A stretch of 64,000 nt of DNA from Myxococcota bacterium. Lineage in GTDB: Bacteria; Myxococcota_A; Bradymonadia; UBA7976; UBA1532. The notes under the pieces are model-generated. The model had not been told where the DNA came from. It ran no database searches and was given only the letters and a program-made list of their open reading frames with translations. The DNA is taken from the NCBI GenBank assembly GCA_036337435.1, contig JAYZEG010000001.1, positions 64,001-128,000 on the forward strand, in the 5' to 3' direction. The first letter of the stretch is position 1; each line of letters opens with the position of its first letter. The translations under genes were made by a program, and so were the position numbers. This document shows, one piece after another, positions 35,841 through 48,035 of this stretch.

Positions 35841-37997
35841 GTGATTATGTATCGCAGCGCATTTACGAGTATTCTATTGGTTTGCATCTGCTCAATGGGA
35901 CAGGCTGAACGGTCTAATTATGGTTATAATTTCGCCTCGAACCTGCCCTTTGCGCATATCATTAATTCGGGTCCCGTGGCCGACGCCAGCCAAATCGGTT
36001 TTGCGAAGTATGCACGCGACTTGTCTGGTAAGTGGAAGACAGGTGTAACTCATAAAAACCGGTCAGCGGCCTACATACCCGGCTTGCAGAGTCACCTGTG
36101 GTTGCCCACAGGCGGACATTTGAGCAATCAGGATCTGGCGATCGAGTTCATGATCGACCCCCTAGGGTCGGACCAAAGACTAGATATTTTCGTCGCCGGC
36201 AAGAAAATCGGACACAAAGTGCTCAAGCCAGGCTGGCAAACCCACACCATTAAGGTGCCCAATAATTTGGTTAAAAAATCTGACCTCCATGTGAGGCTTC
36301 ATTTTCGACGAACCGTTGCTCATCGCGGTCGAAAAACCGCCGCAGCCCTCCGCTATATGCGCCTAAAATCCGCGACATCTCCAGAGCTCCCCATCGACGA
36401 GTCATCACTGAAAAATGTACTTAACATCGGCGATCTCACGGCCATCCGAATCTCACGGCAAACTGGCCTTGACTGGTACTTGGTTCCAGTAAAGGGTAAT
36501 CGCTTTACCGCAAATTCAACCGGCAGCCCCGTACAAATTTGGGCTCAAACAGATGGATCAAAGCCCAAGAAGCTCTCTCAGGGAACCACGCTCGATGTCG
36601 ATCTGTCACGCTACGCAAACAAAGCCGTTCGAATCATGCTTAGGAGTGCTGGGGACGCAACCATTCAAGGCGCACAGTTGACGGGCGGAACCCCGGGGGC
36701 GCCGAGCATCAATAAAGCACCTAAGCATGTGGTGTTTTGGCTGATCGACACGCTCCGGGCAGACAAACTCTCAGTCTACAAACAACGCAACGCAAATCGC
36801 CGCCCAAAACCCAGAACGCCTCATCTTGAGGCTCTGGCAAAAGAAGGCACAGTCTTCCAGAACTTCTGGGTTCAAGGCAATGAGTCAAAGGCCAGCCATG
36901 CGAGCCTGTTTACAGGGACATATCCTGCCGTTCATCGGGTGATTAATCACAAAGCAAACCTGCCAGGCAAACTCACGACCATCGCAGAAGCTTTCACAAC
37001 CCAGGGCTATCTCAGCGGCGGCTATGTCAGCAATGGCTATATCAGTCAAAAATGGAACTTTGCTCAGGGCTTCAACAAGAAAGTCTTCGTCAATAACATC
37101 CGAAAAAGCAGAGCCAATAATGCGAGAGCCATCTTGCGACAGGCCAAATCATTTATCGATAGATACAAAACCAAGCCCTTTTATCTCTATCTGGGTACGT
37201 CGGACCCCCACGTCACATACCGACGCCACAAAAACCTGATTAAACGCTATGACAACAAACCGTATTCAGGCCTATACCAAAAGAGTCTCACAGGAACGGA
37301 ATTAGGTGAAATCAAGAGCCGCAAGACACCACCATCCAAGCGGGATCAAACACGGATCGAGGCTCTGTATGAAAATGAAATCGAATTTAACGATATCCAT
37401 TTTGGCAAGCTGGTCGCACACCTGAAGGCCGCCGGTATCTATGATGACACGATGATCATCGTGTCGTCCGACCACGGGGATGAATTTTGGGAACATGGGT
37501 CATGTGGTCACGGACAGAGTTTGCATCAAGAACTCATCAGCGTGCCGCTCATTATCAAAATGCCCGGTTGGTTTCCAAAAGGTAAAAGGGTCTATTTTGG
37601 GACCGATGGAGTCGATTTGCTACCCACCATCCAGCGGGTACTCGGACAAACGCCAGCCGGCGATATTCAAGGGGAGGATGTCCTTGGGAAAGTCTGGTCA
37701 AAGGGACCGATTTATCCCATCGCTCAGGTGGCGAGCATGGGCGTGAAGAAATATGCGCTGCAGGTCGGCCCAGCCAAAGTGATCATGGCCGGACCCAGTG
37801 CGCTCAGCGTGTATGATACGGGCAACGATCCGGCCGAACAAAAGAACGTACTCAAAACCAAACCGATCTTGGTACGCGCCGCCATGGATCCTTTAGCGAT
37901 ATTCGCGCCTCGGGCATCAAAATGGAAAAAGAAGACCTGGGGTGCTGCAAACAACCTGGATCATCAATTTACTCGAGATAACGCGGGCCAGAAATGA
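35841..37997 (+). CDS. Exported sulfatase-fold (alkaline phosphatase superfamily) protein, atypical active site
   Basis: IDTLRAD, SHASLFTG, DPH, SDHGDEFWEHG, VPLII motifs; about 290-aa N-terminal beta-rich extension. Confidence 0.88.
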   Translation: MIMYRSAFTSILLVCICSMGQAERSNYGYNFASNLPFAHIINSGPVADASQIGFAKYARDLSGKWKTGVTHKNRSAAYIPGLQSHLWLPTGGHLSNQDLAIEFMIDPLGSDQRLDIFVAGKKIGHKVLKPGWQTHTIKVPNNLVKKSDLHVRLHFRRTVAHRGRKTAAALRYMRLKSATSPELPIDESSLKNVLNIGDLTAIRISRQTGLDWYLVPVKGNRFTANSTGSPVQIWAQTDGSKPKKLSQGTTLDVDLSRYANKAVRIMLRSAGDATIQGAQLTGGTPGAPSINKAPKHVVFWLIDTLRADKLSVYKQRNANRRPKPRTPHLEALAKEGTVFQNFWVQGNESKASHASLFTGTYPAVHRVINHKANLPGKLTTIAEAFTTQGYLSGGYVSNGYISQKWNFAQGFNKKVFVNNIRKSRANNARAILRQAKSFIDRYKTKPFYLYLGTSDPHVTYRRHKNLIKRYDNKPYSGLYQKSLTGTELGEIKSRKTPPSKRDQTRIEALYENEIEFNDIHFGKLVAHLKAAGIYDDTMIIVSSDHGDEFWEHGSCGHGQSLHQELISVPLIIKMPGWFPKGKRVYFGTDGVDLLPTIQRVLGQTPAGDIQGEDVLGKVWSKGPIYPIAQVASMGVKKYALQVGPAKVIMAGPSALSVYDTGNDPAEQKNVLKTKPILVRAAMDPLAIFAPRASKWKKKTWGAANNLDHQFTRDNAGQK

Positions 37998-38860
37998 AAC
38001 AAATCAATGCGGTTGTGTTGCTAGCGACGTTAGGCCTGCTGGTCTTGACGAATGTCGCGACCGGCCAGGGCAGTGTCGTCGACAATCCCCGCGGCGTCGC
38101 CATGGGTGCTTTGTCGGCCGACGCCATCGGAACAAGTGGTATCATCCACAACCCGGCTGGCTTGAGCCGTGCTTACGTCTACCAAATCGACCTTGTCTAC
38201 CTGCGGAATGATCCCGGGAAGTTGAATATCACGGGTGTCAATATCGCCGATTCAAAATCTCAACCTGTTCTCGCGGCCGGCCTCAGCTATGGATTTCACT
38301 CCACAGACAAAGGGTCAGAGTTTGAACAAAAAGGACATGATGCTCGCTTGGGGTTCTCCCATCCAGCGATTCCAGACAAATTGCACCTCGGCGTCGGATT
38401 GCGGTACTTGGAAATCGAGCGAAGTGCGGACGACCTACAAGGTTTCACGGTTGACGCCGGTCTCATATTTAGTGCCACGAAGGGCTTTCACATCGGCTTG
38501 GTCGGAAAAAACTTAGTCGACCTTGATGACCCAATGGCGCCGAGACAAGCGGGCGGTGGGTTTGCGTTTACTGGAGATGCAGTCACACTCACAACAGATG
38601 TTCTCATCGACTTTAACCGTCATATCGACGGTCCAAAGCCCATCTTCGCAACCGGTTTAGAAGGTCTTATGGGTGATGCGATTCCCATTCGCATCGGCTA
38701 CACGAACGACCGAGTAACGGCGCATCAATTCATAGGCGGAGGCCTCGGCTTTATCGTACGCGAAGGGGGCGGTAACGGGCAGCTCATGCTCGCCTACCGA
38801 CATAACCTAACGGAAACGTCTAACTATACATTCGGCATTGGCCTGACCATGTTTTTGTAG
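37994..38860 (+). CDS. FadL/PorV-like outer-membrane beta-barrel protein
   Basis: Signal peptide; RGVAMG...HNPAGL plug motif; amphipathic strands ending FGIGLTMFL. Confidence 0.75.
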   Translation: MKQINAVVLLATLGLLVLTNVATGQGSVVDNPRGVAMGALSADAIGTSGIIHNPAGLSRAYVYQIDLVYLRNDPGKLNITGVNIADSKSQPVLAAGLSYGFHSTDKGSEFEQKGHDARLGFSHPAIPDKLHLGVGLRYLEIERSADDLQGFTVDAGLIFSATKGFHIGLVGKNLVDLDDPMAPRQAGGGFAFTGDAVTLTTDVLIDFNRHIDGPKPIFATGLEGLMGDAIPIRIGYTNDRVTAHQFIGGGLGFIVREGGGNGQLMLAYRHNLTETSNYTFGIGLTMFL

Positions 38861-38878
38861 CCGTTTTGAGTCGAGATA

Positions 38879-39454
38879 ATGTCTGAAAATGCCTCCAAAA
38901 ACCGAGACCATGACTTTCGCCGGTTCTTAAAAAACATCGCGTTTACCGGGTTGGCCCTGGTTTTTATATTCATCATCACCCGGCCAGATGGTGGACCACA
39001 ACTCGGATCAATGGCCCCCGATTTTAAAACCCAAACACTCACGAGACAAGCGGTCTCCCTCGACCAATACAAAGGACAGGTGGTCGTTTTAGATTTCTGG
39101 GCGACCTGGTGTGCACCCTGCCGTAAGACCCTGCCAGCACTCCAAATTCTGCACAAACGCTATCAAAACAGTGACCGTGTCCAGATCTTGTCGGTCAGTA
39201 TCGACTCGGCACCCAACTTGGCGCGCTATGTCGGCGCCTTTATGAAGCAGAACCAGTACAGTTTCCCAGTGATCCTAGATCCCAGCCGGGCCCTTGCGTC
39301 TCGATATAAAGTCAAGACGGTACCTACGATGGTTGTCATCGATAAATCCGGTGCCGTGTCCACCGTGCAAATCGGCTTGCTCAGCCCCCGAGTTAACCAA
39401 CTCATCGACCACATCGAAAAAGCCATCGCACAAGCAGAAGATTCCTCCAGCTAG
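38879..39454 (+). CDS. TlpA-family thiol-disulfide oxidoreductase
   Basis: N-terminal TM, APDF, DFWATWCAPC, VPT cis-Pro loop. Confidence 0.94.
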   Translation: MSENASKNRDHDFRRFLKNIAFTGLALVFIFIITRPDGGPQLGSMAPDFKTQTLTRQAVSLDQYKGQVVVLDFWATWCAPCRKTLPALQILHKRYQNSDRVQILSVSIDSAPNLARYVGAFMKQNQYSFPVILDPSRALASRYKVKTVPTMVVIDKSGAVSTVQIGLLSPRVNQLIDHIEKAIAQAEDSSS

Positions 39455-39544
39455 CGTCGAGCCGAGCGGGAGGAATTGAACCTAAGATGACTGGTCTCCC
39501 AAGAGCGAGGGACAGACAAGCCTAAGTTATGATATCGTCATCGC

Positions 39545-40864
39545 GTGAAACACTCGTCGACAAGATTCAACTCGATCGCTTTTTTGACATCGGCCATCCT
39601 CTTGTCCGTGTGGCCATGCTTTGCCAACCCTTTCTATATCGGTCGTTTTGATGGTTTGCGGAGCGGGGCCCTGAATCAAAGTGCCTTTTCAACCTATTGG
39701 AATCCAGCCGGATTAACCACCCAAGACACGCGGCTCAACTTGCATTTACTCGGTGTGAATCGGAGCGCGAGTTTTGACCGTTATGCTGAGGAAAATAATG
39801 TCCCAGACGAGTTCAAAGAGGCAAACGCAGGCGAAAACACCACGGGCGCATTTGGGCTGGTTCCCTCAGCGGCAATTGCTCATGGAATGAACCTGGGGGA
39901 TTTTGATCTAGGCGTCGGGCTCGCTTGGTTTATTGATCGAGCAGGAAAAACCAAATGGAAGAAAAATTTAGCGGCACCTGCCGAATTTCCGGGTGCCATT
40001 GATGGTCCCCAGCGGTGGGCCACCATCAATACCCAACTCTTGATCATGAGCACGGGGCTCGGCATGGGCGTCGGATACCGTCCATGGGGACTGAGCATCG
40101 GCGTCACACCAGTCTTTAATTATACACGTCTCAGTACCGTCCGTGCCCGGAACCCTGACAGCGGCGATCGACTAATCGATGAGTCAGGAGGCCTAGCCGA
40201 AGGCCGCATTCTATTCGAAAATGGGGAGGCTTCTGCACTCTCGTGGATCGTGGGAACTCGTTGGCAACCATCACCAAATTGGGGTTTTGGCGTAAGCTGG
40301 AGTTCGGGTATCTCCTATGATGTGAAAGGACAAGTTCATATCTCCTTTGGTCGGGCCGATGAAACCCATGCGAATGCGCGCTTCGACTTACCCGTTCCAC
40401 AAAGCGTTCGCCTTGAATTGGGGATGGACTTCGGAACCATGATAACGCTGCGGCCCCAAGTGACCTGGACTGAATGGTCGGTTTTCGAGAAACAAGAGGC
40501 TGTTAATATCGAAAATGATGAAGTCTTGCTCAGCCAGGAGCGGAACTTTGACGATGTCATTAGTTATCGCTTGGCATGCGATTTAGCCATCAATCAAAGA
40601 TTAACTCTTCATACAACCGGTCAATTTGAACACGGCGCAACACCCGTGGACACGTTTGAGCCCGGTTTGGCAGAATCGAACAATTGGGAACTCGGACTGG
40701 GCGCATCGGTTCAGCTCACCGAGGCAGTAGACTTGTCGGTGAGCTTTACATGGCAACAATTTGTCGATGTTGAGGTGAGAAACAGCGTTCAACAACCCAC
40801 GATGAATGGTTTTTATACCGATGCACGCCAATACATCACTGTCGATCTCGAGGTTTCGCTATGA
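39545..40864 (+). CDS. OmpP1/FadL/TodX family outer-membrane transporter
   Basis: Signal peptide, YWNPAGL plug motif, WTEWSVF, long run of amphipathic beta-strands. Confidence 0.85.
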   Translation: MKHSSTRFNSIAFLTSAILLSVWPCFANPFYIGRFDGLRSGALNQSAFSTYWNPAGLTTQDTRLNLHLLGVNRSASFDRYAEENNVPDEFKEANAGENTTGAFGLVPSAAIAHGMNLGDFDLGVGLAWFIDRAGKTKWKKNLAAPAEFPGAIDGPQRWATINTQLLIMSTGLGMGVGYRPWGLSIGVTPVFNYTRLSTVRARNPDSGDRLIDESGGLAEGRILFENGEASALSWIVGTRWQPSPNWGFGVSWSSGISYDVKGQVHISFGRADETHANARFDLPVPQSVRLELGMDFGTMITLRPQVTWTEWSVFEKQEAVNIENDEVLLSQERNFDDVISYRLACDLAINQRLTLHTTGQFEHGATPVDTFEPGLAESNNWELGLGASVQLTEAVDLSVSFTWQQFVDVEVRNSVQQPTMNGFYTDARQYITVDLEVSL

Positions 40865-41979
40865 CACGTTTGCTTTGCCTCATGATTCTGCTCACGGGCT
40901 GTGCTGCCGAGACGCCGAAGGACGATTATCGGAATTATCGACAACGCACAGAGACGGCTCGCACCGACATCTGTGCACAATCGACCGGCTCAGGACAACT
41001 CAGCGACCTCACGGGAATGTGGCTCATTCGAGCATTGCTCAACGGCGGTATTACCCTCGGTTTACGAATTGAAATTCGTGCTGCTGAGGGTGAAACAGCA
41101 GTGCCACCTAAACGGATTGAGGCTCGTTTCTGGCTGGAAGAAAACCCCCTCGACATGGAGCCAGTGGTGACCACGGTGGCAGATATTGGAGATGATGGAC
41201 GGTTTGTCATTATCGCCGATCCCCTTGAATTGGGACCTGAAACCTTGGGGTCGCCGTCGACGGTAGCCGCCAGAGTAGAGCTGCATGGCCAAGCAATCGA
41301 TGCTGATGGCTGGTGCGGCATCGTCTTTGGTAATGTGGTCAGTCCGCTGAATTTGAACTTGGAGGGCTCGACATTCGGTGCCAGTCGGCTCACCGATGGA
41401 CTCAACTCCGATTCAGTCCCCTATCGCTGCCCTGGTGATCCCTGTGTACCCGATGCCAGCCCACCTGAAGATACAGGTCTCGTGCCTGATGCCGGTGTGT
41501 CTATTCAACCAAATAGGCCCGCCTTCGACGTGGCGAGTGGACAGCGACATAACATTACGGGCGACTGGTTTCTCCAGGCCAATTTGTCTGGCTTACCCCT
41601 CAATTTGTGGATCTCACTCAATTATCGAAGCGGAGATGAGATCACCAGTCCGGCCTCCCTCGATGGCAGTCTGCGTTTGGCGACAGATCCCATCGAGCAA
41701 CCCGCTCGACTGACTTTTTCCGCACAGGTCAACGAAGACGGTGAATTCGACCTCTGGCTACCAAATCTAGAACTCGATATCGGAGCCTTAGTCGTCAGGG
41801 GTGATATTTTATTGTCAGCAGCAAGCTTTGACGATGGCTGGTGTGGATTGGCTGCTGGCAACGTCACCGATCCCTTCGAAATTGATCTCACTGGCTCGAC
41901 TTTCGGCGCACTGAGATGGATGCCCGGAACCGAGGCACCAGACGAACCGCTCAGTGCATGTCCATCAGATGACCAGTGA
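40861..41979 (+). CDS. Lipoprotein with two tandem homologous beta-rich domains
   Basis: LLTG-C lipobox; internal duplication (DLTGMWL...GWCG...GNVVSP...LEGSTFGA vs NITGDWF...GWCG...GNVTDP...LTGSTFGA); ATGA overlap with the FadL gene. Confidence 0.85.
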   Translation: MTRLLCLMILLTGCAAETPKDDYRNYRQRTETARTDICAQSTGSGQLSDLTGMWLIRALLNGGITLGLRIEIRAAEGETAVPPKRIEARFWLEENPLDMEPVVTTVADIGDDGRFVIIADPLELGPETLGSPSTVAARVELHGQAIDADGWCGIVFGNVVSPLNLNLEGSTFGASRLTDGLNSDSVPYRCPGDPCVPDASPPEDTGLVPDAGVSIQPNRPAFDVASGQRHNITGDWFLQANLSGLPLNLWISLNYRSGDEITSPASLDGSLRLATDPIEQPARLTFSAQVNEDGEFDLWLPNLELDIGALVVRGDILLSAASFDDGWCGLAAGNVTDPFEIDLTGSTFGALRWMPGTEAPDEPLSACPSDDQ

Positions 41980-42535
41980 GCGTCCCGCCGAACAACCACT
42001 TTGGTTTTTCGGATATGGTTCACTGATATGGCGCCCAGACTTTCCGTTTCTGGAGCAGCAGCCGGCTCGTCTTTCCGGATTTATTCGACGCTTTTGGCAA
42101 GGGTCACCAGACCATCGGGGTACGCCCTCAGAGCCAGGTCGCGTGGTCACTTTGGTCCCCGACCCTACGGGACATTGTGATGGGGTTGCTTTCAGAGTGT
42201 TGCCCGACCATCTGCAGTCTATTCTTGAGTACCTAGATGAACGAGAAAGCGGAGGCTACACGCGCATTATCTCACCAATCGACATGGGGCACATTGTGCA
42301 CGCCACAGTCTATGTTGCAAACCAAAACAACCCCCATTATTTGGGTCCAGCTGACTTAGACCAGATGGCCCAACATATCGTCAGAAGTCAGGGTCCGAGC
42401 GGAACCAATCTTCAATATCTGACAGAACTGGCTCGCAGCCTGGACAATTGGCGCATCAAAGATAAGCACGTCCTGGATTTACACGCTCAATGTCTACGGA
42501 TACAGCACTGCGAGGGCGTCTCGGATGAGCGCTAG
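41969..42535 (+). CDS. chaC: ChaC-like glutathione-specific gamma-glutamylcyclotransferase
   Basis: WFFGYGSLIW, RRFWQGSPDHRGT...PGRVVTL, YLDERE, GPSGTNLQY. Confidence 0.93.
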   Translation: MTSERPAEQPLWFFGYGSLIWRPDFPFLEQQPARLSGFIRRFWQGSPDHRGTPSEPGRVVTLVPDPTGHCDGVAFRVLPDHLQSILEYLDERESGGYTRIISPIDMGHIVHATVYVANQNNPHYLGPADLDQMAQHIVRSQGPSGTNLQYLTELARSLDNWRIKDKHVLDLHAQCLRIQHCEGVSDER

Positions 42536-43135
42536 GCTTCCCGCTAACCGGTGGTCATCATCGGCCTGAAATAGAGACAGGACGCCTGGCGAACGCCTGG
42601 CTACTGACACGCTCTCACTTAAGGGAATGACGGCGTCATGTGCCCCATGGATGATCACAGTATTGGCCTCGATTACAGTTCGGGATGCGGCTCGGCACTC
42701 GGTCCAAAAAGAAAAAGGTAAGTCGACAAGCCCGCCAACAGCCGCATGCTGATACTGTATGAATCCACTCGACGACCATTGAGAGAAAGCCTTTTCTCCT
42801 AGCCTGTTCCGAAACGACTCATGCACACCGAATGCGGGTGCGAGCAAGATGGTTTTGTAGGCGTCTGAGGGCCGATTTGATAGTGCAACTGCCGATGCGA
42901 GACCACCCATGCTCGAGCCAACGAGCAGAGAGATCTCAGGGTGTAAATCGAGGGTTTCCGAGAGCACCGAGACGTGGTCTGAAAAACACCACCCCTGACT
43001 ATGAAGGGTAGGTGCGACCACCTCCATACCAAGGGAATCACGCAGGTAGGTTGCTTTTCGTCCGTTAGGTCGGCCCTCGAAACCGTGGGCAAAAATAACC
43101 TTTTTGGGGACAGTCCCTGTGGATTTCATGGTCAT
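42494..43135 (-). CDS. YqiA/YcfP-type alpha/beta hydrolase (esterase)
   Basis: FAHGF, GSSMGG nucleophile elbow, IIHGAHDAVI, DDDHRL; ATG 43135 overlaps the upstream gene's TGA. Confidence 0.88.
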   Translation of the reverse strand: MTMKSTGTVPKKVIFAHGFEGRPNGRKATYLRDSLGMEVVAPTLHSQGWCFSDHVSVLSETLDLHPEISLLVGSSMGGLASAVALSNRPSDAYKTILLAPAFGVHESFRNRLGEKAFSQWSSSGFIQYQHAAVGGLVDLPFSFWTECRAASRTVIEANTVIIHGAHDAVIPLSESVSVARRSPGVLSLFQADDDHRLAGSLALIRDALAVLYP

Positions 43136-44619
43136 CTTCGCAGCGTCCTCCTGGCCGTCCCAATGGAAATACACCAGAGGATGACTGTCGCAATGGCCGG
43201 CCCTAAAATGCCCATGCTAACGAAGACTGCTGTCCATCCCTCGACCTGCCCATGTAGAGAGATCGCTTGGACCGTCGACAGTACAAAATCCGTAAGGGTC
43301 GCTCCGGCTAAGAACATGCTGAGTCGAGGTGCTGTCGCATGTTGGACTTTGAGTAAGGCACTCAGCGAAAACAACCCTGTCGCCAGCAGACTATTGAAGA
43401 CGATCCAAGCCACCTGAATGCTTTGGTCACCAAACCAAAATGAACCGTCCACATTGGCTAAAAGCCCAGTCCAAAGTATGAGAATTAAACATTGAACCGC
43501 CAATAGAAGAGACCAAAACTGGGGGGTAACTCGTGCGAGCAAACGTCTGAAACTATCGAATAAAAACGCCCAGGTAGATTTTGGGGCGAAAGCTTTTAAG
43601 AGAACTGCAGTGGCTTTTACACCACTGGTTTCCCGAGTCTTCAACAGATACTGGGGCACCCAGCGATGTGGATTGAAACGACCTTTAAATCGATATAGCC
43701 CGTCAAAATCGTAAAGACCCTTTACCCAATTCAACATTTTATAACCGAAAGGCCCGATGACACTCGCCCCCCTCGAATCCGTCGACAGCCGAGCTAATGG
43801 TGCCAGGCCAAGTGTCGCAAAACTGGACCCGGTCGATTGAACATCGATCATCGCCGTGTGGATTAAGAGTTCACTGGTGCCATTGGGCGCATCAGGCGTT
43901 CTGATGACATCTTCAAAAAACCAACCCTGTCGACCGTACACGGGGACAGCGGCTAAAAAACCTACGGGCTGCCCACCGTGCAGAGCAAGAAAGTAGCGTT
44001 TCTCATTGGCAAAAGAGAATGGCTCTAAACTGACCATGAATTTGAGAATCCCGATTGGCCGAGCGTCCATCCAGCGTTTCATAACATGGCGAATCGCAAG
44101 TTTCGCCGTGCCCTCAAATTCACCCGATGGCAAAGCCTGTACCTTTTGAATTGATACATTCTTGTTTTTGGCGCGATTGATCTGCGCTCTCAACGTTTTA
44201 TTCTCAGCACCCTCAATGGTGTAATTCTGGCAATCCCATTCGGGTTGTTCTCCGATTTTGACGATATCGAAATGGTCTAATTCAGACCCAAAGTGAGACA
44301 AGGCCCATTCTTCCACACCTGCCAGAAGCACACGCCAACCATTGGATTCGGAAAATTGCCTAAACGCAGACAAGGCCATGCAGAGTCGGTCTTGAGACAC
44401 GATGGGTTGGCCGACAACGACGGCAAAACCACCGGTCACTAAGTATGCCACAGCGCATTCATGTCCATCATCGTCAGACCAAAACCAATAGGTGTATCCT
44501 TCTTCGAGCGCTTGAAATGCACTGGCAAATCGGCCGTGCTGACGGATAAGCGACAAAACCCGTAGACGGTCTTCGGCAAGGCTGGCTTCGTTGATGAGCC
44601 TGCTGTCAACGGACTGCAC
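43132..44619 (-). CDS. DUF2156 / MprF-C-like tRNA-dependent aminoacyltransferase domain with C-terminal TM helices
   Basis: VVVGQP, KIGEQ, LRAQINRA, RTPDAPNGTSELLI, TLGLAPLA, YDFDGLYRFKGRFNPHRWVPQYL; about four TM helices at the C-terminus. Confidence 0.88.
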   Translation of the reverse strand: MQSVDSRLINEASLAEDRLRVLSLIRQHGRFASAFQALEEGYTYWFWSDDDGHECAVAYLVTGGFAVVVGQPIVSQDRLCMALSAFRQFSESNGWRVLLAGVEEWALSHFGSELDHFDIVKIGEQPEWDCQNYTIEGAENKTLRAQINRAKNKNVSIQKVQALPSGEFEGTAKLAIRHVMKRWMDARPIGILKFMVSLEPFSFANEKRYFLALHGGQPVGFLAAVPVYGRQGWFFEDVIRTPDAPNGTSELLIHTAMIDVQSTGSSFATLGLAPLARLSTDSRGASVIGPFGYKMLNWVKGLYDFDGLYRFKGRFNPHRWVPQYLLKTRETSGVKATAVLLKAFAPKSTWAFLFDSFRRLLARVTPQFWSLLLAVQCLILILWTGLLANVDGSFWFGDQSIQVAWIVFNSLLATGLFSLSALLKVQHATAPRLSMFLAGATLTDFVLSTVQAISLHGQVEGWTAVFVSMGILGPAIATVILWCISIGTARRTLRR

Positions 44620-44906: not shown

Positions 44907-47900
44907 ATGAGTACGATGGACGACAAGAACGAACAGGACAAGGCTGAGGTAACCGAGCCAAACCGAGAGCAGTCGACGCAATCTAATTTCTTTGATGAAG
45001 ACGATATCGCGGAAATTGCGGCCGAGGCCGATGACGTTCTGAATGCACTCTTCGCCGAAGACGCATCGGGGATAGACGACATCCCCGCCGATCCAACTGA
45101 ATCGGAAGATCCCCCAGAATCTGACTCCATGTCTGCGACCATTGCCCTTGATGAATCTGACATTGATGAGGCCTTGGACAATCCAGCTTCAGGGCTCGGT
45201 ACAATCGCCCTTGATGACAACGACATTGATGAAGCACTCAGCCAAGCTCAATCCGGCGGCGCGACAATCGCCCTCGATGATTCGGATATCGATGCTGCCT
45301 TAGATTCAAATCAGGTTTCGCCAACACAGACCATCGCCCTCGACGAGCGTGATATCGATATCGCCTACCTGGTTGGCGACGAGCAAAATGAAACCAAACA
45401 AGCAGAGAGTATGGAGCCCGATAACGGTCCGTCCGACCTAGATAAAACCTTGCTTAGACTCGATGCCGTAAAAGGAAATGAGGCTGATGTCTCCGGTCAT
45501 TCAGAACCAGCGGGAGGATCAGCAGAAACTCAGTCCAATATCCTCGAACTCCAACAAGCACTCAAACTCGCCACAGAAGAGGTTGCCCAACTTCGCATCA
45601 AGGGACGAGAGCAGAAGGTCGAAGAAACGCGCCTTCGAACGGAAATCGGTCAAGTCCGCGATGAACTTCTCAAAGCAAAGCAGGACTTGAGTGAATTTAA
45701 ATCATTAAGTGAACAAGCCAACGAGCAGTTGGAAGAATCAAAGGCGTCTAGCAAGAAACTGCAATCATCGACGCGATTGATCGAAGCCCAGTTGAAGGAG
45801 CTTGATGGTGTCCGAGCTGAGGTGGAATCAGAGCGTGACCAAGCTCGCTCGGAGATTTCAACTTTGCGAACGAGAATGAGCGAACTTCGGGAAAGACTGG
45901 AGAGGACGCAAGCAGAAAGCGAGCGGCATTATATCCTAGTCACAGAAACTCAAACAAAAGCCCGCTCTAATGATGAACGACTCCGAACTGAGTTGGCCGA
46001 ACTCCAAGAGAAAGCAACGGCAGACACGCTGGACTTATCCAATCAGCTCGCCGAGTTGAAGGAAAGCCAAAGCGCGCTGGAGGACCAACGGGAAAAAGAA
46101 ACCAGCGCACTGGTTCGAGAGCGTGACCAGACCAAAGAGCGGTTGGCCGAGCTGAGGACGACCAGTGATGAACAGATCGCGCAGCTCAAAGCTGAATTGG
46201 CGCGCGTTCGCGACTCGTTAATCACGGAGCTCGGGGATGCGAAGCGAAATACAGAAACCATAGAGCAGGAGCTGGGGGCGAAGACGGCTGGTCTCCAAGC
46301 TGAAGTCGATCACCTGCGAAACAATCTCTTAGAGGCGGAACGAACACATGCGGATCGATTGACTGAAACCCGGGAACAAAACGAGGCCACTCTCAAAGCC
46401 CTGCGAGACGCCCATCGGGAAGCCATTGAAGAAATTCAAGCCGATATGGAAGCTCGTCTAAAGCAGCAGGCTGACGCCCATCTCAACGCAATTGAATCGA
46501 TTCAAACTGAGCATGCTAACGAATCTGATGAAGAAAAGAGCCGGGATGAATCTCTTGCAGCATTGCGGTCTAAGCATGCAAAAGAGCTGGAACGCATCCG
46601 CACCGAACATATTGCTGAGACGCTTGGTCTAAAGCGAAAACACACGGAAGCTCTTGAGGTTCGCGAGCGGGAATTAAAACATACTGAAGCTGAAAAAATT
46701 GACCTGCTGACAAAGCAACATAACGCGTCCATCGAAGCTCTAAAACGAAATTCAGATGGGGAAATCAAAGAGATAAAGGCTCAGCATGAGCGCGCGATGG
46801 CGACACTCCGAAACGACGGTGCTGGTCAATTAGAGCGACTGCGTGATGGCCACCAAAAACGTCTTGACGAGATGAATGCGGAACAGCGAAAAGCCACCGA
46901 GGGCTTTCACGATGCCTTACGCAAAGCAATTGAAGATGTGAATGGAGAACACCGATCAACCATTAATGAACTCAACCAGGTTCACAGTGCCGCACTAGAT
47001 AACCAAGCAAAACTGATGGATGAACGGCTGGCCGACCAAGCGAAGACACATGAAAAGACAATTGAAGCCCTAAAGGCAGACCATGCGAAGACCATCGGCT
47101 CACTCACTCGAGAGCATGGCTCGGCTTTCGATGAACTTGAGAAACGACATTCGTCTCAATTGAAGGCCACCATGGAGGAACATGGCACATTGGTCGAAAC
47201 GCTCACACAGGATTGGACGAATCAACTAAAAGAGTCTGAATCAAACTTAGCGACCGCACGTGACAACCTCGAAAATGCAGAGACTCGCTTGGCTGCCGAG
47301 CAAGAACGCATCTGGCAGGGCAAACTAAACGAAATGATCACCGAGCATAATCAAGGACTCGAATCCCTCCGTGTCGAACAGGCCGATGCGATGGCGGTCA
47401 TCGACTCCGAACTGAGCGCAGCCAAAAATGAACTGGCGACAAAGACTGCGCTGCTTGAGGCGAAATCTCAGGAAATGCGTCGAGCCGCGGAAGCTTCGGA
47501 AGCCCAAAACGTATCCCTAGAGAAGTCTGTTGAGGTCCTGCGGGCTGAAATCAATCAACTCAACGGGCACCTGTCCAAATCAAATCAGGACTTAGAGGCC
47601 AGCCAACTCCAACTTAGGCATATCACCAGTCGGTTTGAAAACGCGGATAAAGAGTTAAAAGAAACGGCCAGACGCCTCGCAAACGAGCAAAGCGCAAAAG
47701 CCGACGTCGAAGTTGAATTCGCTGCTCGACGGGCTGATCTAGAAGCCAAGTTTAACATGGATACGGAACGGCTATCTGAACTTGAGCGTGCACTGGCGAA
47801 CCTCAATGAAACACTGGCCGAGCAGGATGACAAAATGCGAGCTGCTCATGCTCGTGCAGACACTGCAGAAGCGCACGTCATACAATTACGGGCAGAAACA

Positions 47901-48035
47901 GCGGAGCTGCGTGAACAAGCGACAGCCCGAGAGGAGAGCTTCAAGAAACTCCGGATGGCCATAGCCGTTGCCAATACCTTCGCAGGACAAGTGGGCGATG
48001 ATGAAGCGTCTCAGGGTGGAGAACACGAGTCTTGA
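44907..48035 (+). CDS. Large coiled-coil protein with acidic repeat-containing N-terminus
   Basis: GAGGAG RBS; 1042 aa; about 200-aa acidic disordered head followed by continuous heptad-rich E/L/A/K/R/H sequence. Confidence 0.9.
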   Translation: MSTMDDKNEQDKAEVTEPNREQSTQSNFFDEDDIAEIAAEADDVLNALFAEDASGIDDIPADPTESEDPPESDSMSATIALDESDIDEALDNPASGLGTIALDDNDIDEALSQAQSGGATIALDDSDIDAALDSNQVSPTQTIALDERDIDIAYLVGDEQNETKQAESMEPDNGPSDLDKTLLRLDAVKGNEADVSGHSEPAGGSAETQSNILELQQALKLATEEVAQLRIKGREQKVEETRLRTEIGQVRDELLKAKQDLSEFKSLSEQANEQLEESKASSKKLQSSTRLIEAQLKELDGVRAEVESERDQARSEISTLRTRMSELRERLERTQAESERHYILVTETQTKARSNDERLRTELAELQEKATADTLDLSNQLAELKESQSALEDQREKETSALVRERDQTKERLAELRTTSDEQIAQLKAELARVRDSLITELGDAKRNTETIEQELGAKTAGLQAEVDHLRNNLLEAERTHADRLTETREQNEATLKALRDAHREAIEEIQADMEARLKQQADAHLNAIESIQTEHANESDEEKSRDESLAALRSKHAKELERIRTEHIAETLGLKRKHTEALEVRERELKHTEAEKIDLLTKQHNASIEALKRNSDGEIKEIKAQHERAMATLRNDGAGQLERLRDGHQKRLDEMNAEQRKATEGFHDALRKAIEDVNGEHRSTINELNQVHSAALDNQAKLMDERLADQAKTHEKTIEALKADHAKTIGSLTREHGSAFDELEKRHSSQLKATMEEHGTLVETLTQDWTNQLKESESNLATARDNLENAETRLAAEQERIWQGKLNEMITEHNQGLESLRVEQADAMAVIDSELSAAKNELATKTALLEAKSQEMRRAAEASEAQNVSLEKSVEVLRAEINQLNGHLSKSNQDLEASQLQLRHITSRFENADKELKETARRLANEQSAKADVEVEFAARRADLEAKFNMDTERLSELERALANLNETLAEQDDKMRAAHARADTAEAHVIQLRAETAELREQATAREESFKKLRMAIAVANTFAGQVGDDEASQGGEHES
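45138..45370 (+). repeat. Four intragenic TIALD[ED]xDID repeats
   Basis: TIALDESDIDEAL, TIALDDNDIDEAL, TIALDDSDIDAAL and TIALDERDIDIAY at about 21-22 aa spacing. Confidence 0.9.

Follow-up and report, generated by a model that had tools for sequence, protein, structure and literature searches.

A DUF2156-family transferase with its membrane helices at the C-terminal end, and the esterase gene that adjoins it in a Bradymonadia genome

Two overlapping genes on the reverse strand of a 64,000-nucleotide stretch of Bradymonadia DNA are the subject of this report (the whole stretch, positions 64,001 to 128,000 of contig JAYZEG010000001.1 in GenBank assembly GCA_036337435.1, is referred to as the window; its source is a Myxococcota bacterium that we take to be a marine organism of the predatory type). 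The upstream gene (44619..43132, running from a GTG start to a TGA stop at 43134-43132) encodes a 495-residue protein in which a tandem-GNAT aminoacyl-tRNA transferase domain of the DUF2156 family (residues 24-326, 43642..44550, predicted to be cytoplasmic) precedes a family-specific membrane domain of four helices (residues 366-494, 43138..43524, predicted to be N-in/C-in). The downstream gene (42494..43135, ATG start at 43135) encodes a 213-residue, UPF0227-like alpha/beta-hydrolase esterase (P0002) with the triad S75/D167/H195. Direct reading of the sequence places the stop of the one and the start of the other in a shared ATGA (43132..43135), and a Shine-Dalgarno-like AGGAGG hexamer (43147..43152), which may serve the esterase, lies on the same strand inside the transferase gene, 11 nt 5' of the esterase ATG. 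Both genes are real: they have many conserved homologues and high-confidence structure models (predicted local distance difference test scores (pLDDT) of 92.4 for the transferase and 94.8 for the esterase). Promoter and terminator scans of the locus gave no signal above that of shuffled sequence. The transferase belongs to a real and conserved family whose architecture has DUF2156 first and membrane helices last; the esterase accompanies it in a single lineage, as discussed further on.

tRNA-dependent aminoacylation of lipids is a major bacterial route to the tuning of membrane charge and to resistance against cationic peptides. To our knowledge, the bacterial enzymes so far described always have the membrane or flippase part ahead of the synthase domain, and we know of no study of the aminoacyl lipids of predatory and soil Myxococcota, which are the main hosts of the family considered here. 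The aminoacyl-phosphatidylglycerol synthases (aaPGSs), for which seven sequence types are recognised, are described as having a synthase domain that is C-terminal and cytosolic, with 2-14 helices making up the membrane domain at the N-terminus (PMC6103681); most carry the N-terminal transmembrane (TM) domain, and free-standing DUF2156 enzymes exist in fungi (PMC8913301). Full-text searches of the literature turned up no account of a DUF2156 enzyme whose membrane domain is C-terminal, an arrangement that one of the seven recognised aaPGS types may include. With that reservation, this agrees with a preliminary description of the locus, made from the sequence without database searches, which had proposed a third architecture. 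All the features that it had listed are present at the positions it gave.

The match of the transferase to PF09924 (LPG_synthase_C, formerly DUF2156) covers positions 3-297 of a 298-position profile at 123.7 bits (cut-off 27.5, E 1e-35), and thus takes in the whole domain. A sequence profile search of the PDB returns MprF/LpiA (7f47, 6lv0 and 6lvf), the lysyl-phosphatidylglycerol synthase LysPGS (4v36) and the alanyl-phosphatidylglycerol synthase AlaPGS (4v34) at E 3e-34 to 5e-26, with 7f47 the best at E 2.7e-34, and aligns the EDVIR, PDAPNGT, LGLAPL and FxGLxxFKxRFxPxW motifs of the family with those of MprF. (The LpiA/MprF structures are from Rhizobium, LysPGS 4v36 is from Bacillus licheniformis, and AlaPGS 4v34/4v35 and 9goe are from Pseudomonas aeruginosa.) The AlphaFold2 model, which was generated from an alignment of 65 full-length members (A1) and has a mean pLDDT of 92.4 and a predicted template-modelling score (pTM) of 0.88, leads to the same enzymes: the top Foldseek matches in the PDB are 5vrv, 4v36, 4v35, 6lv0, full-length MprF 9goe, 7duw and 7f47 (E 2e-19 to 8e-13). 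These alignments extend over approximately 330-350 columns, that is, over the catalytic domain only, and target-normalised TM-scores of 0.78-0.83 against 5vrv, 4v36, 4v35 and 6lv0 identify its fold as tandem GNAT. FemX and other tandem-GNAT aminoacyl-tRNA transferases rank lower, at E about 1e-9, and Sbb17-type enzymes are found among the weaker matches.

Residue conservation in the 65-member alignment fits this assignment. E236, R240, N246, G247, G271, P274, F305, K312, P317 and W320 are invariant (65/65). A positively charged helix that receives the tRNA acceptor stem is common to aminoacyl-tRNA transferases, and a catalytic Arg polarises the aminoacyl ester in the aaPGSs (PMC6103681). For the first of these, the modelled helix 138-152 of the window protein is a fitting counterpart, with R149 invariant and R144 and K153 nearly so; its position between the two GNAT halves suggests helix 5 of the solved enzymes as its equivalent. 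For the second, R240 is a candidate, paired in the PDB profile alignment with the Arg of the MprF 'DLMR' motif. On sequence grounds we count the catalytic domain as a genuine member of the DUF2156 aminoacyl-tRNA transferase family, and it is this domain that is shared with MprF and the aaPGSs (LpiA 6lv0, 6lvf, 7duw and 7f47; LysPGS 4v36; AlaPGS 4v34/4v35 and 9goe): PF09924, the tandem GNAT fold, the basic tRNA-binding helix and the conserved motifs are common to all. Common to them also would be a synthase domain that is cytoplasmic and attached to the membrane, and the expected chemistry, transfer from aminoacyl-tRNA to a lipid hydroxyl.

The protein is nevertheless not an MprF, since the N-terminal flippase domain that defines MprF was looked for and is absent: the Pfam scan of the 495-residue protein gave no match to PF03706, and the NCBIfam MprF model (NF033480) reaches 100.9 bits against a cut-off of 600, matching at its C-terminal positions 520-836 only. 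Relative to MprF, the order of domains is inverted. The preliminary description had reported an N-terminal DUF2156 domain followed by about four C-terminal TM helices, which is what is found, and had added that there is no flippase. The latter is correct as far as PF03706 in this protein is concerned, but it passes over the conserved residues of the four-helix (4-TM) domain and two stand-alone PF03706 proteins encoded elsewhere in the genome. The genes for these two proteins lie beside CpsB/CapC and sugar-epimerase genes; because both contexts are polysaccharide contexts, we do not tie them to the transferase. No second PF09924 match is present in the genome of the window (4.38 Mb, 87% complete).

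The hydrophobicity plot of the transferase shows four C-terminal helices and none at the N-terminus, and AlphaFold2 places the helices at residues 366-389, 399-424, 430-455 and 462-494. Over the 65 sequences, the mean number of Lys and Arg residues is 2.8 ahead of TM1, 0.7 for loop 1 (with 1.7 Asp and Glu), 1.8 for loop 2, 0.6 for loop 3 and 2.5 for the C-terminal tail, a clean positive-inside pattern, from which both ends of the membrane domain, and the GNAT domain with them, are predicted to lie in the cytoplasm (N-in/C-in). All of the same sequences share L380, W383, D444 (halfway along TM3) and P474, without exception; P382, T384, F396, W405 and A477 are nearly invariant, and loop 1, predicted to be periplasmic, carries a conserved DGxxWFGD motif. 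With invariant residues within the membrane and a conserved periplasmic loop, the 4-TM domain looks, from its sequence, to be more than a hydrophobic anchor.

Searches with the 4-TM domain lead back to its own family. At E <= 10 Pfam offers no family for it, rhomboid included, DUF3681 alone appearing at 0.037, and the ESM Atlas features are all below 0.8, with no convincing neighbour. HMMER over 1.84 billion representative proteins gave 42 matches, 28 of which were scanned with Pfam: 10 are C-terminal pieces behind a PF09924 match, 15 are short pieces without a family (the 11 of these that were read are C-terminal pieces or start in the conserved membrane region or shortly ahead of it), and three are VWA/phosphatase repeat proteins, taken as spurious; the remaining matches have the full length of the family (459-529 residues). 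In that collection the 4-TM domain thus occurs only behind DUF2156 or as fragments. Its similarity to the TM regions of MprF is not detectable. Circular permutation of MprF was considered as a source and rejected: comparison of the 4-TM profile by hhalign with the TM domains of six MprFs from Myxococcota returned a probability of 0.2%, which gives no sign of such an origin, and a HMMER stretch falling on MprF TM residues 330-430 in the PDB profile search is not significant.

The family itself was surveyed in several collections. A search of 5.8 billion clustered proteins yielded 111 matches, of which 64 (among them the protein of the window) extend over 90% or more of the query, with lengths of 437-518 residues; the few named members are from metagenome-assembled genomes (MAGs) of Myxococcota, Myxococcales or Kofleriaceae. 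In a sample of the phylum, 74 of 401 genomes contain a match with E <= 1e-10, which in about 30 of them runs through the membrane part at the C-terminus. A pattern scan covering 185,579 species, each represented by one genome, produced 121 confirmed loci, and 80 of these were kept for locus analysis. The closest are from Bradymonadia and 'Myxococcales' MAGs; the others come from Kofleriaceae, Polyangiales and Haliangiales, from Thermoanaerobaculia and other Acidobacteriota, from Candidatus Eisenbacteria and from Planctomycetota, the last including one complete genome, that of Pirellulaceae bacterium SH501. Matches in long open frames of about 850-980 residues also turn up in the phylum sample, in genomes distinct from those that carry the inverted form, and the six that were fetched are open reading frames (ORFs) of MprF length with hydrophobic N-terminal halves; this separation of the two forms is a pattern only, as matches near the threshold could have been missed. 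Four genomes of family f1, one of the groups of related genomes in the sample (G071, G076, G121 and G126), have neither an orthologue of the DUF2156-4TM gene nor the esterase, and contain a different DUF2156 gene with a catalytic-domain match only (E 1e-23 to 1e-28; frames of 568-659 residues).

The transferase of the window would accordingly best be described as a membrane-bound, aminoacyl-tRNA-dependent enzyme of the MprF/aaPGS (DUF2156) superfamily in an inverted build. From the kinship of its catalytic domain we infer dependence on charged tRNA and a lipid acceptor: an amino acid would most likely be transferred to form an ester on the hydroxyl of a membrane lipid in the inner leaflet, with phosphatidylglycerol or some other glycerolipid as a possible acceptor. 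The 4-TM domain would hold the enzyme at the membrane and would probably help to handle the lipid substrate or product, a role suggested by the invariant mid-membrane Asp and the conserved periplasmic loop. To the whole statement, that this is an aminoacyl-lipid synthase bound to the membrane and facing the cytoplasm, in which a new C-terminal domain handles lipid or serves as an anchor, we assign a probability of about 0.6, and the same figure is our estimate for the full explanation in which the Bradymonadia esterase figures as an eraser; for the transferase part taken by itself our confidence is higher. What is new is an architectural variation on a known kind of enzyme; the addition of a lineage-specific cytoplasmic eraser is plausible but unproven. 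The reversed order and the unrelated four-helix domain raise the question of how little membrane machinery this chemistry needs, and also of how the product reaches the outer leaflet, if at all. The invariant membrane-embedded Asp provides a direct mutational handle, and the Bradymonadia pair is a simple two-gene system for testing a cytoplasmic eraser in bacteria.

The esterase matches PF05728 (UPF0227) at E 4.1e-10 and 40.3 bits (cut-off 21), and general alpha/beta-hydrolase families match as well. It had been called YqiA-type, which holds for membership of the UPF0227 family and fails for YqiA itself: against the YqiA equivalog (NF008291) it scores 17.7 bits where 252 are needed, and it is not a YqiA orthologue. 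With UPF0227/YqiA and ABHD10 it shares a minimal alpha/beta-hydrolase fold, a GxSxG elbow and a Ser-Asp-His triad. All 15 homologues in the alignment have the GSSMGG nucleophile elbow (S75), D167 and H195, so that the intact triad noted earlier is borne out, and orthologues at 39-77% identity keep HGFEG, GSSMGG, D167 and H195. As had also been noted, a signal peptide is lacking: a hydrophobicity plot of P0002 shows no N-terminal hydrophobic segment, and the orthologues, likewise without a signal peptide, begin directly at the first (HGFEG) strand. Together with the positive-inside pattern of the transferase, this agrees with the earlier placing of both proteins on the side of the cytoplasm, towards which they are predicted to face. 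The AlphaFold2 model of the esterase (pLDDT 94.8) is a minimal alpha/beta hydrolase, for which Foldseek lists ABHD10 (6ny9, E 9e-12) as the best match, followed by feruloyl esterases and monoacylglycerol lipases. Identity to the matched structures is 15-23%; with such a set of matches the fold says 'esterase or lipase', and no more.

Hydrolase genes beside aaPGS genes have been described before, with three unrelated types known, and AhyD and fungal ErdH are both alpha/beta hydrolases (PMC6103681, PMC7334510). AhyD in Firmicutes, VirJ/AcvB/PA0919 in Proteobacteria and PesT are each found in an operon with an aaPGS gene, in a semi-conserved and lineage-restricted fashion; PesT, a putative esterase of Corynebacterium glutamicum, is encoded in an operon with alaDAGS and is needed for alanyl-phosphatidylglycerol (Ala-PG) alongside alanyl-diacylglycerol (Ala-DAG) (PMC6103681). 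P0002 resembles AhyD and PesT in its gene setting. VirJ is periplasmic, whereas P0002 lacks a signal peptide, and P0002 matches neither PF06057 (VirJ/AcvB) nor PF07859 (ErdH) at E <= 0.01. (A PF06057 scan of the whole genome also gave no match, but its control gave none either, and it is therefore uninformative.) The bacterial aminoacyl-glycerolipid hydrolases are described with N-terminal secretion signals (PMC7334510). A parallel in logic is fungal: in ErdS/ErdH, and with ErgS, a DUF2156 transferase is paired with a neighbouring Ser-Asp-His alpha/beta-hydrolase, and the absence of secretion signals points to a writer and an eraser that both work on the cytoplasmic side (PMC7334510, PMC8913301). 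ErdH is a PF07859 alpha/beta hydrolase, and the fungal pair is described as having no membrane segments (PMC7334510). The parallel has its limits, in that ErdS is fused to aspartyl-tRNA synthetase, has no TM helices and acts on a sterol, and the fungal genes are divergent while those of the window overlap. The proposal of a different eraser family survives in that P0002 is outside PF06057 and PF07859, and is weakened as a novelty by the three hydrolase types already known.

The linkage of esterase and transferase was surveyed twice, in samples that share several genomes. Of the 20 best genomes in the phylum sample, five have a homologue of the esterase within 8 kb on either side of the transferase gene: it overlaps the transferase gene in G321, is tens of nucleotides away in G151 and G346, lies about 1 kb off with a 199-residue ORF between in G341, and about 2.1 kb off with an opposite-strand PAP2 gene between in G241. 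Within 4 kb in the species-representative loci, it is found in eight of 80, being adjacent in six (L058, L059, L060, L061, L071 and L077) and near in two (L069 and L070). In a maximum-likelihood tree of 80 transferases (that of the window and those of 79 loci, L088 having been dropped at less than 400 residues; a quick IQ-TREE run, with Shimodaira-Hasegawa-like approximate likelihood-ratio support only), all rows with a known esterase orthologue fall in one 15-row Bradymonadia subclade with a support of 87. Of the 13 rows assessed there (all but L066 and L073), the esterase is adjacent in seven, within 4 kb in two and elsewhere in the genome in four; the other 65 rows of the tree (a nine-row sister subclade and 56 more) have no esterase beside the transferase. 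The seven adjacent rows, the window and the six loci just listed as adjacent, have the two genes on the same strand at spacings of -4 to about 45 nt and make up two branches of the subclade. The ATGA overlap that the preliminary description had read at 43135..43132 is present, and a 4-nt overlap is found also, from coordinates, in L058 and L060, the three transferases being 49-80% identical. Coupling to the esterase is consequently a feature of one subclade rather than, as had been supposed, of the family, and the third writer/eraser architecture that had been proposed keeps its conserved inverted build and loses generality, the esterase being lineage-specific. Close orthologues of the esterase (E <= 1e-45) were also counted in the 17 sampled genomes of family f1: all nine genomes with a full-length transferase have one, and the eight others have none.

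In the Bradymonadia of the window the two genes would be co-transcribed and probably translationally coupled, and the esterase would most likely hydrolyse the aminoacyl ester on the cytoplasmic side, for turnover or homeostasis, a role like that of ErdH beside fungal ErdS. A functional link is favoured by the tight and repeated stop/start coupling, by the joint retention of the two genes and by the precedent of other hydrolases. A number of observations weigh against the explanation that we prefer. Of the 80 loci fetched from other genomes, 72 have no esterase homologue within 4 kb. Outside the Bradymonadia subclade the neighbourhoods are not conserved, and within it the two genes are on different contigs in four genomes (G096, G106, G111 and G116); this narrow distribution and the four unlinked genomes weaken the link. 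The co-occurrence in family f1 may represent a single gain or loss, because the genomes are kin and not independent. UPF0227-like paralogues at 25-35% identity are common in genomes of the phylum that have no transferase (16 of 35 in family f3, nine of 19 in family f25). A fusion of the esterase with DUF2156 was not found, the two longer hits being esterase plus coiled coil, and a blank of this kind is weak evidence. In the transferase, the protein of the window has L382 (codon 43474-43476) in the PWT motif of TM1, where 64 of 65 sequences have Pro. The pair, finally, sits in a larger block that is conserved in Bradymonadia relatives, in the order thymidine phosphorylase, a divergent receiver or coiled-coil protein, transferase, esterase and, on the opposite strand, pntB/pntA, to which a PF13480 GNAT gene is to be added; adjacency may therefore be inherited synteny and cannot, taken alone, separate function from inherited gene order.

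These considerations give substance to a view of the esterase as an unrelated housekeeping enzyme, carried in an inherited synteny block and in places on a shared transcript, to which we accord something like one's second choice: below the explanation that we prefer and well short of an even chance for the explanation as a whole. To the confinement of linkage to nine rows of the 15, the widespread paralogues and the lack of a Rosetta-stone fusion must be added the company that the esterase keeps elsewhere. In G106 (L053), G116 (L054) and G111 (L055) the transferase is located elsewhere and the esterase gene is followed directly, on the same strand, by a gene for a 337-362-residue PF13480 (FemAB-like) GNAT protein, with a 1-nt overlap in L054; in G241 such a gene lies about 3 kb beyond the esterase, and in the genome of the window it adjoins pntAB on another contig (G000:C13:38565-39509; L148:4066-5034). 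The PF13480 GNAT turns up in 24 of the 27 family genomes, with or without the esterase. What a mere passenger would not lead one to expect is a 4-nt overlap kept in three genomes whose transferases have diverged to 49-80% identity, the retention of both genes in nine of nine f1 genomes and the absence of both in eight of eight, and the recurrence of hydrolases beside DUF2156 genes in other lineages (PMC6103681). Prediction of a transferase-esterase complex scored 0.00, which is evidence neither way. For the narrower matter of whether the Bradymonadia esterase is a cytoplasmic eraser or a case of synteny, the odds are roughly even.

Even granting a functional link, the esterase need not be an eraser. 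It might instead shape the product, by trans-esterification or by selective hydrolysis of one product, as a partner of the PesT kind; the precedent of PesT in its operon with alaDAGS (PMC6103681), and the same two-gene logic with tight coupling in the window, speak for this, but the rest of the transferase family dispenses with the esterase, and we hold it to be the least probable of the alternatives that we have considered. Somewhat less improbable, and still improbable, is a membrane acceptor that is not a glycerolipid, such as an undecaprenyl-linked cell-wall or polysaccharide precursor or another membrane-bound small molecule, which the 4-TM domain would bind. The acceptors of DUF2156 and tandem-GNAT enzymes are in fact diverse, extending to fungal sterols (PMC7334510, PMC8913301), peptidoglycan precursors and antibiotics (PMC6103681); FemX and Sbb17-type enzymes do appear among the structural matches, with weaker scores, and the membrane domain, with its conserved periplasmic loop, is unrelated to that of MprF. 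Yet the nearest relatives in both sequence and fold are aaPGS/MprF synthases and not FemX (E about 1e-19 against 1e-9), the full PF09924 profile is covered, and cell-wall or polysaccharide genes do not form a conserved neighbourhood around the gene. An extension of the preferred explanation, which we regard as unlikely though a little less so than an acceptor of another kind, would make the 4-TM domain a minimal lipid-handling module that replaces the 8-14-helix flippase of MprF, in Bradymonadia within a writer/eraser cycle like that of ErdS/ErdH. The domain would then select the acceptor lipid or translocate the product, with Asp444 pairing with the amino group of the product; if so, the family would represent a compact 'inverted MprF', and the Bradymonadia pair a bacterial counterpart of fungal ErdS/ErdH.

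A partner common to the whole family did not emerge: Pfam scans of 115 neighbouring ORFs at 17 loci, and of 48 same-strand neighbours in further loci, disclosed none that recurs. The sole recurrences near the transferase are the Bradymonadia synteny block and, beside some Kofleriaceae copies, CLC/CBS genes: in L083, L094, L109 and L117, which are Kofleriaceae-type loci, CLC chloride-channel/CBS or CBS-domain genes adjoin the transferase gene on the same strand. Two individual cases involve other hydrolases. In a Thermoanaerobaculia MAG, the gene for a 686-residue protein with Abhydrolase_3/BD-FAE and Peptidase_S9 matches (L087:1864-3921) ends about 20 nt upstream of the DUF2156-4TM gene on the same strand; Abhydrolase_3 (PF07859) is the family of fungal ErdH. 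A 705-residue metagenomic fusion protein (P0099) has an N-terminal TM segment, an Abhydrolase_1 domain (68-309) and DUF2156 (356-648), and lacks the 4-TM tail. From these two cases it appears that associations of hydrolases with DUF2156 recur with unrelated hydrolases.

Other genes noted around the pair are on the other strand of the window. A gene for a ChaC-like gamma-glutamylcyclotransferase (41954-42535, PF04752, E 4e-54) converges on that for the esterase, the two overlapping by 42 nt at the 3' end of the latter. Divergent from the transferase gene lies a gene (44907-48035) for a 1042-residue coiled-coil protein with N-terminal acidic repeats (IALDxxDIDxAL-like), and in the relatives L037, L039 and L043 a response-regulator receiver domain protein takes its position. 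Downstream of ChaC on the other strand, the window contains a run of envelope genes (37994-41979), encoding an unassigned 288-residue protein whose N-terminus resembles a signal peptide, a TlpA-like thioredoxin (AhpC-TSA), a FadL/TodX-type outer-membrane transporter and a 372-residue protein without a Pfam family; the order of these genes is kept in G321 and G151.

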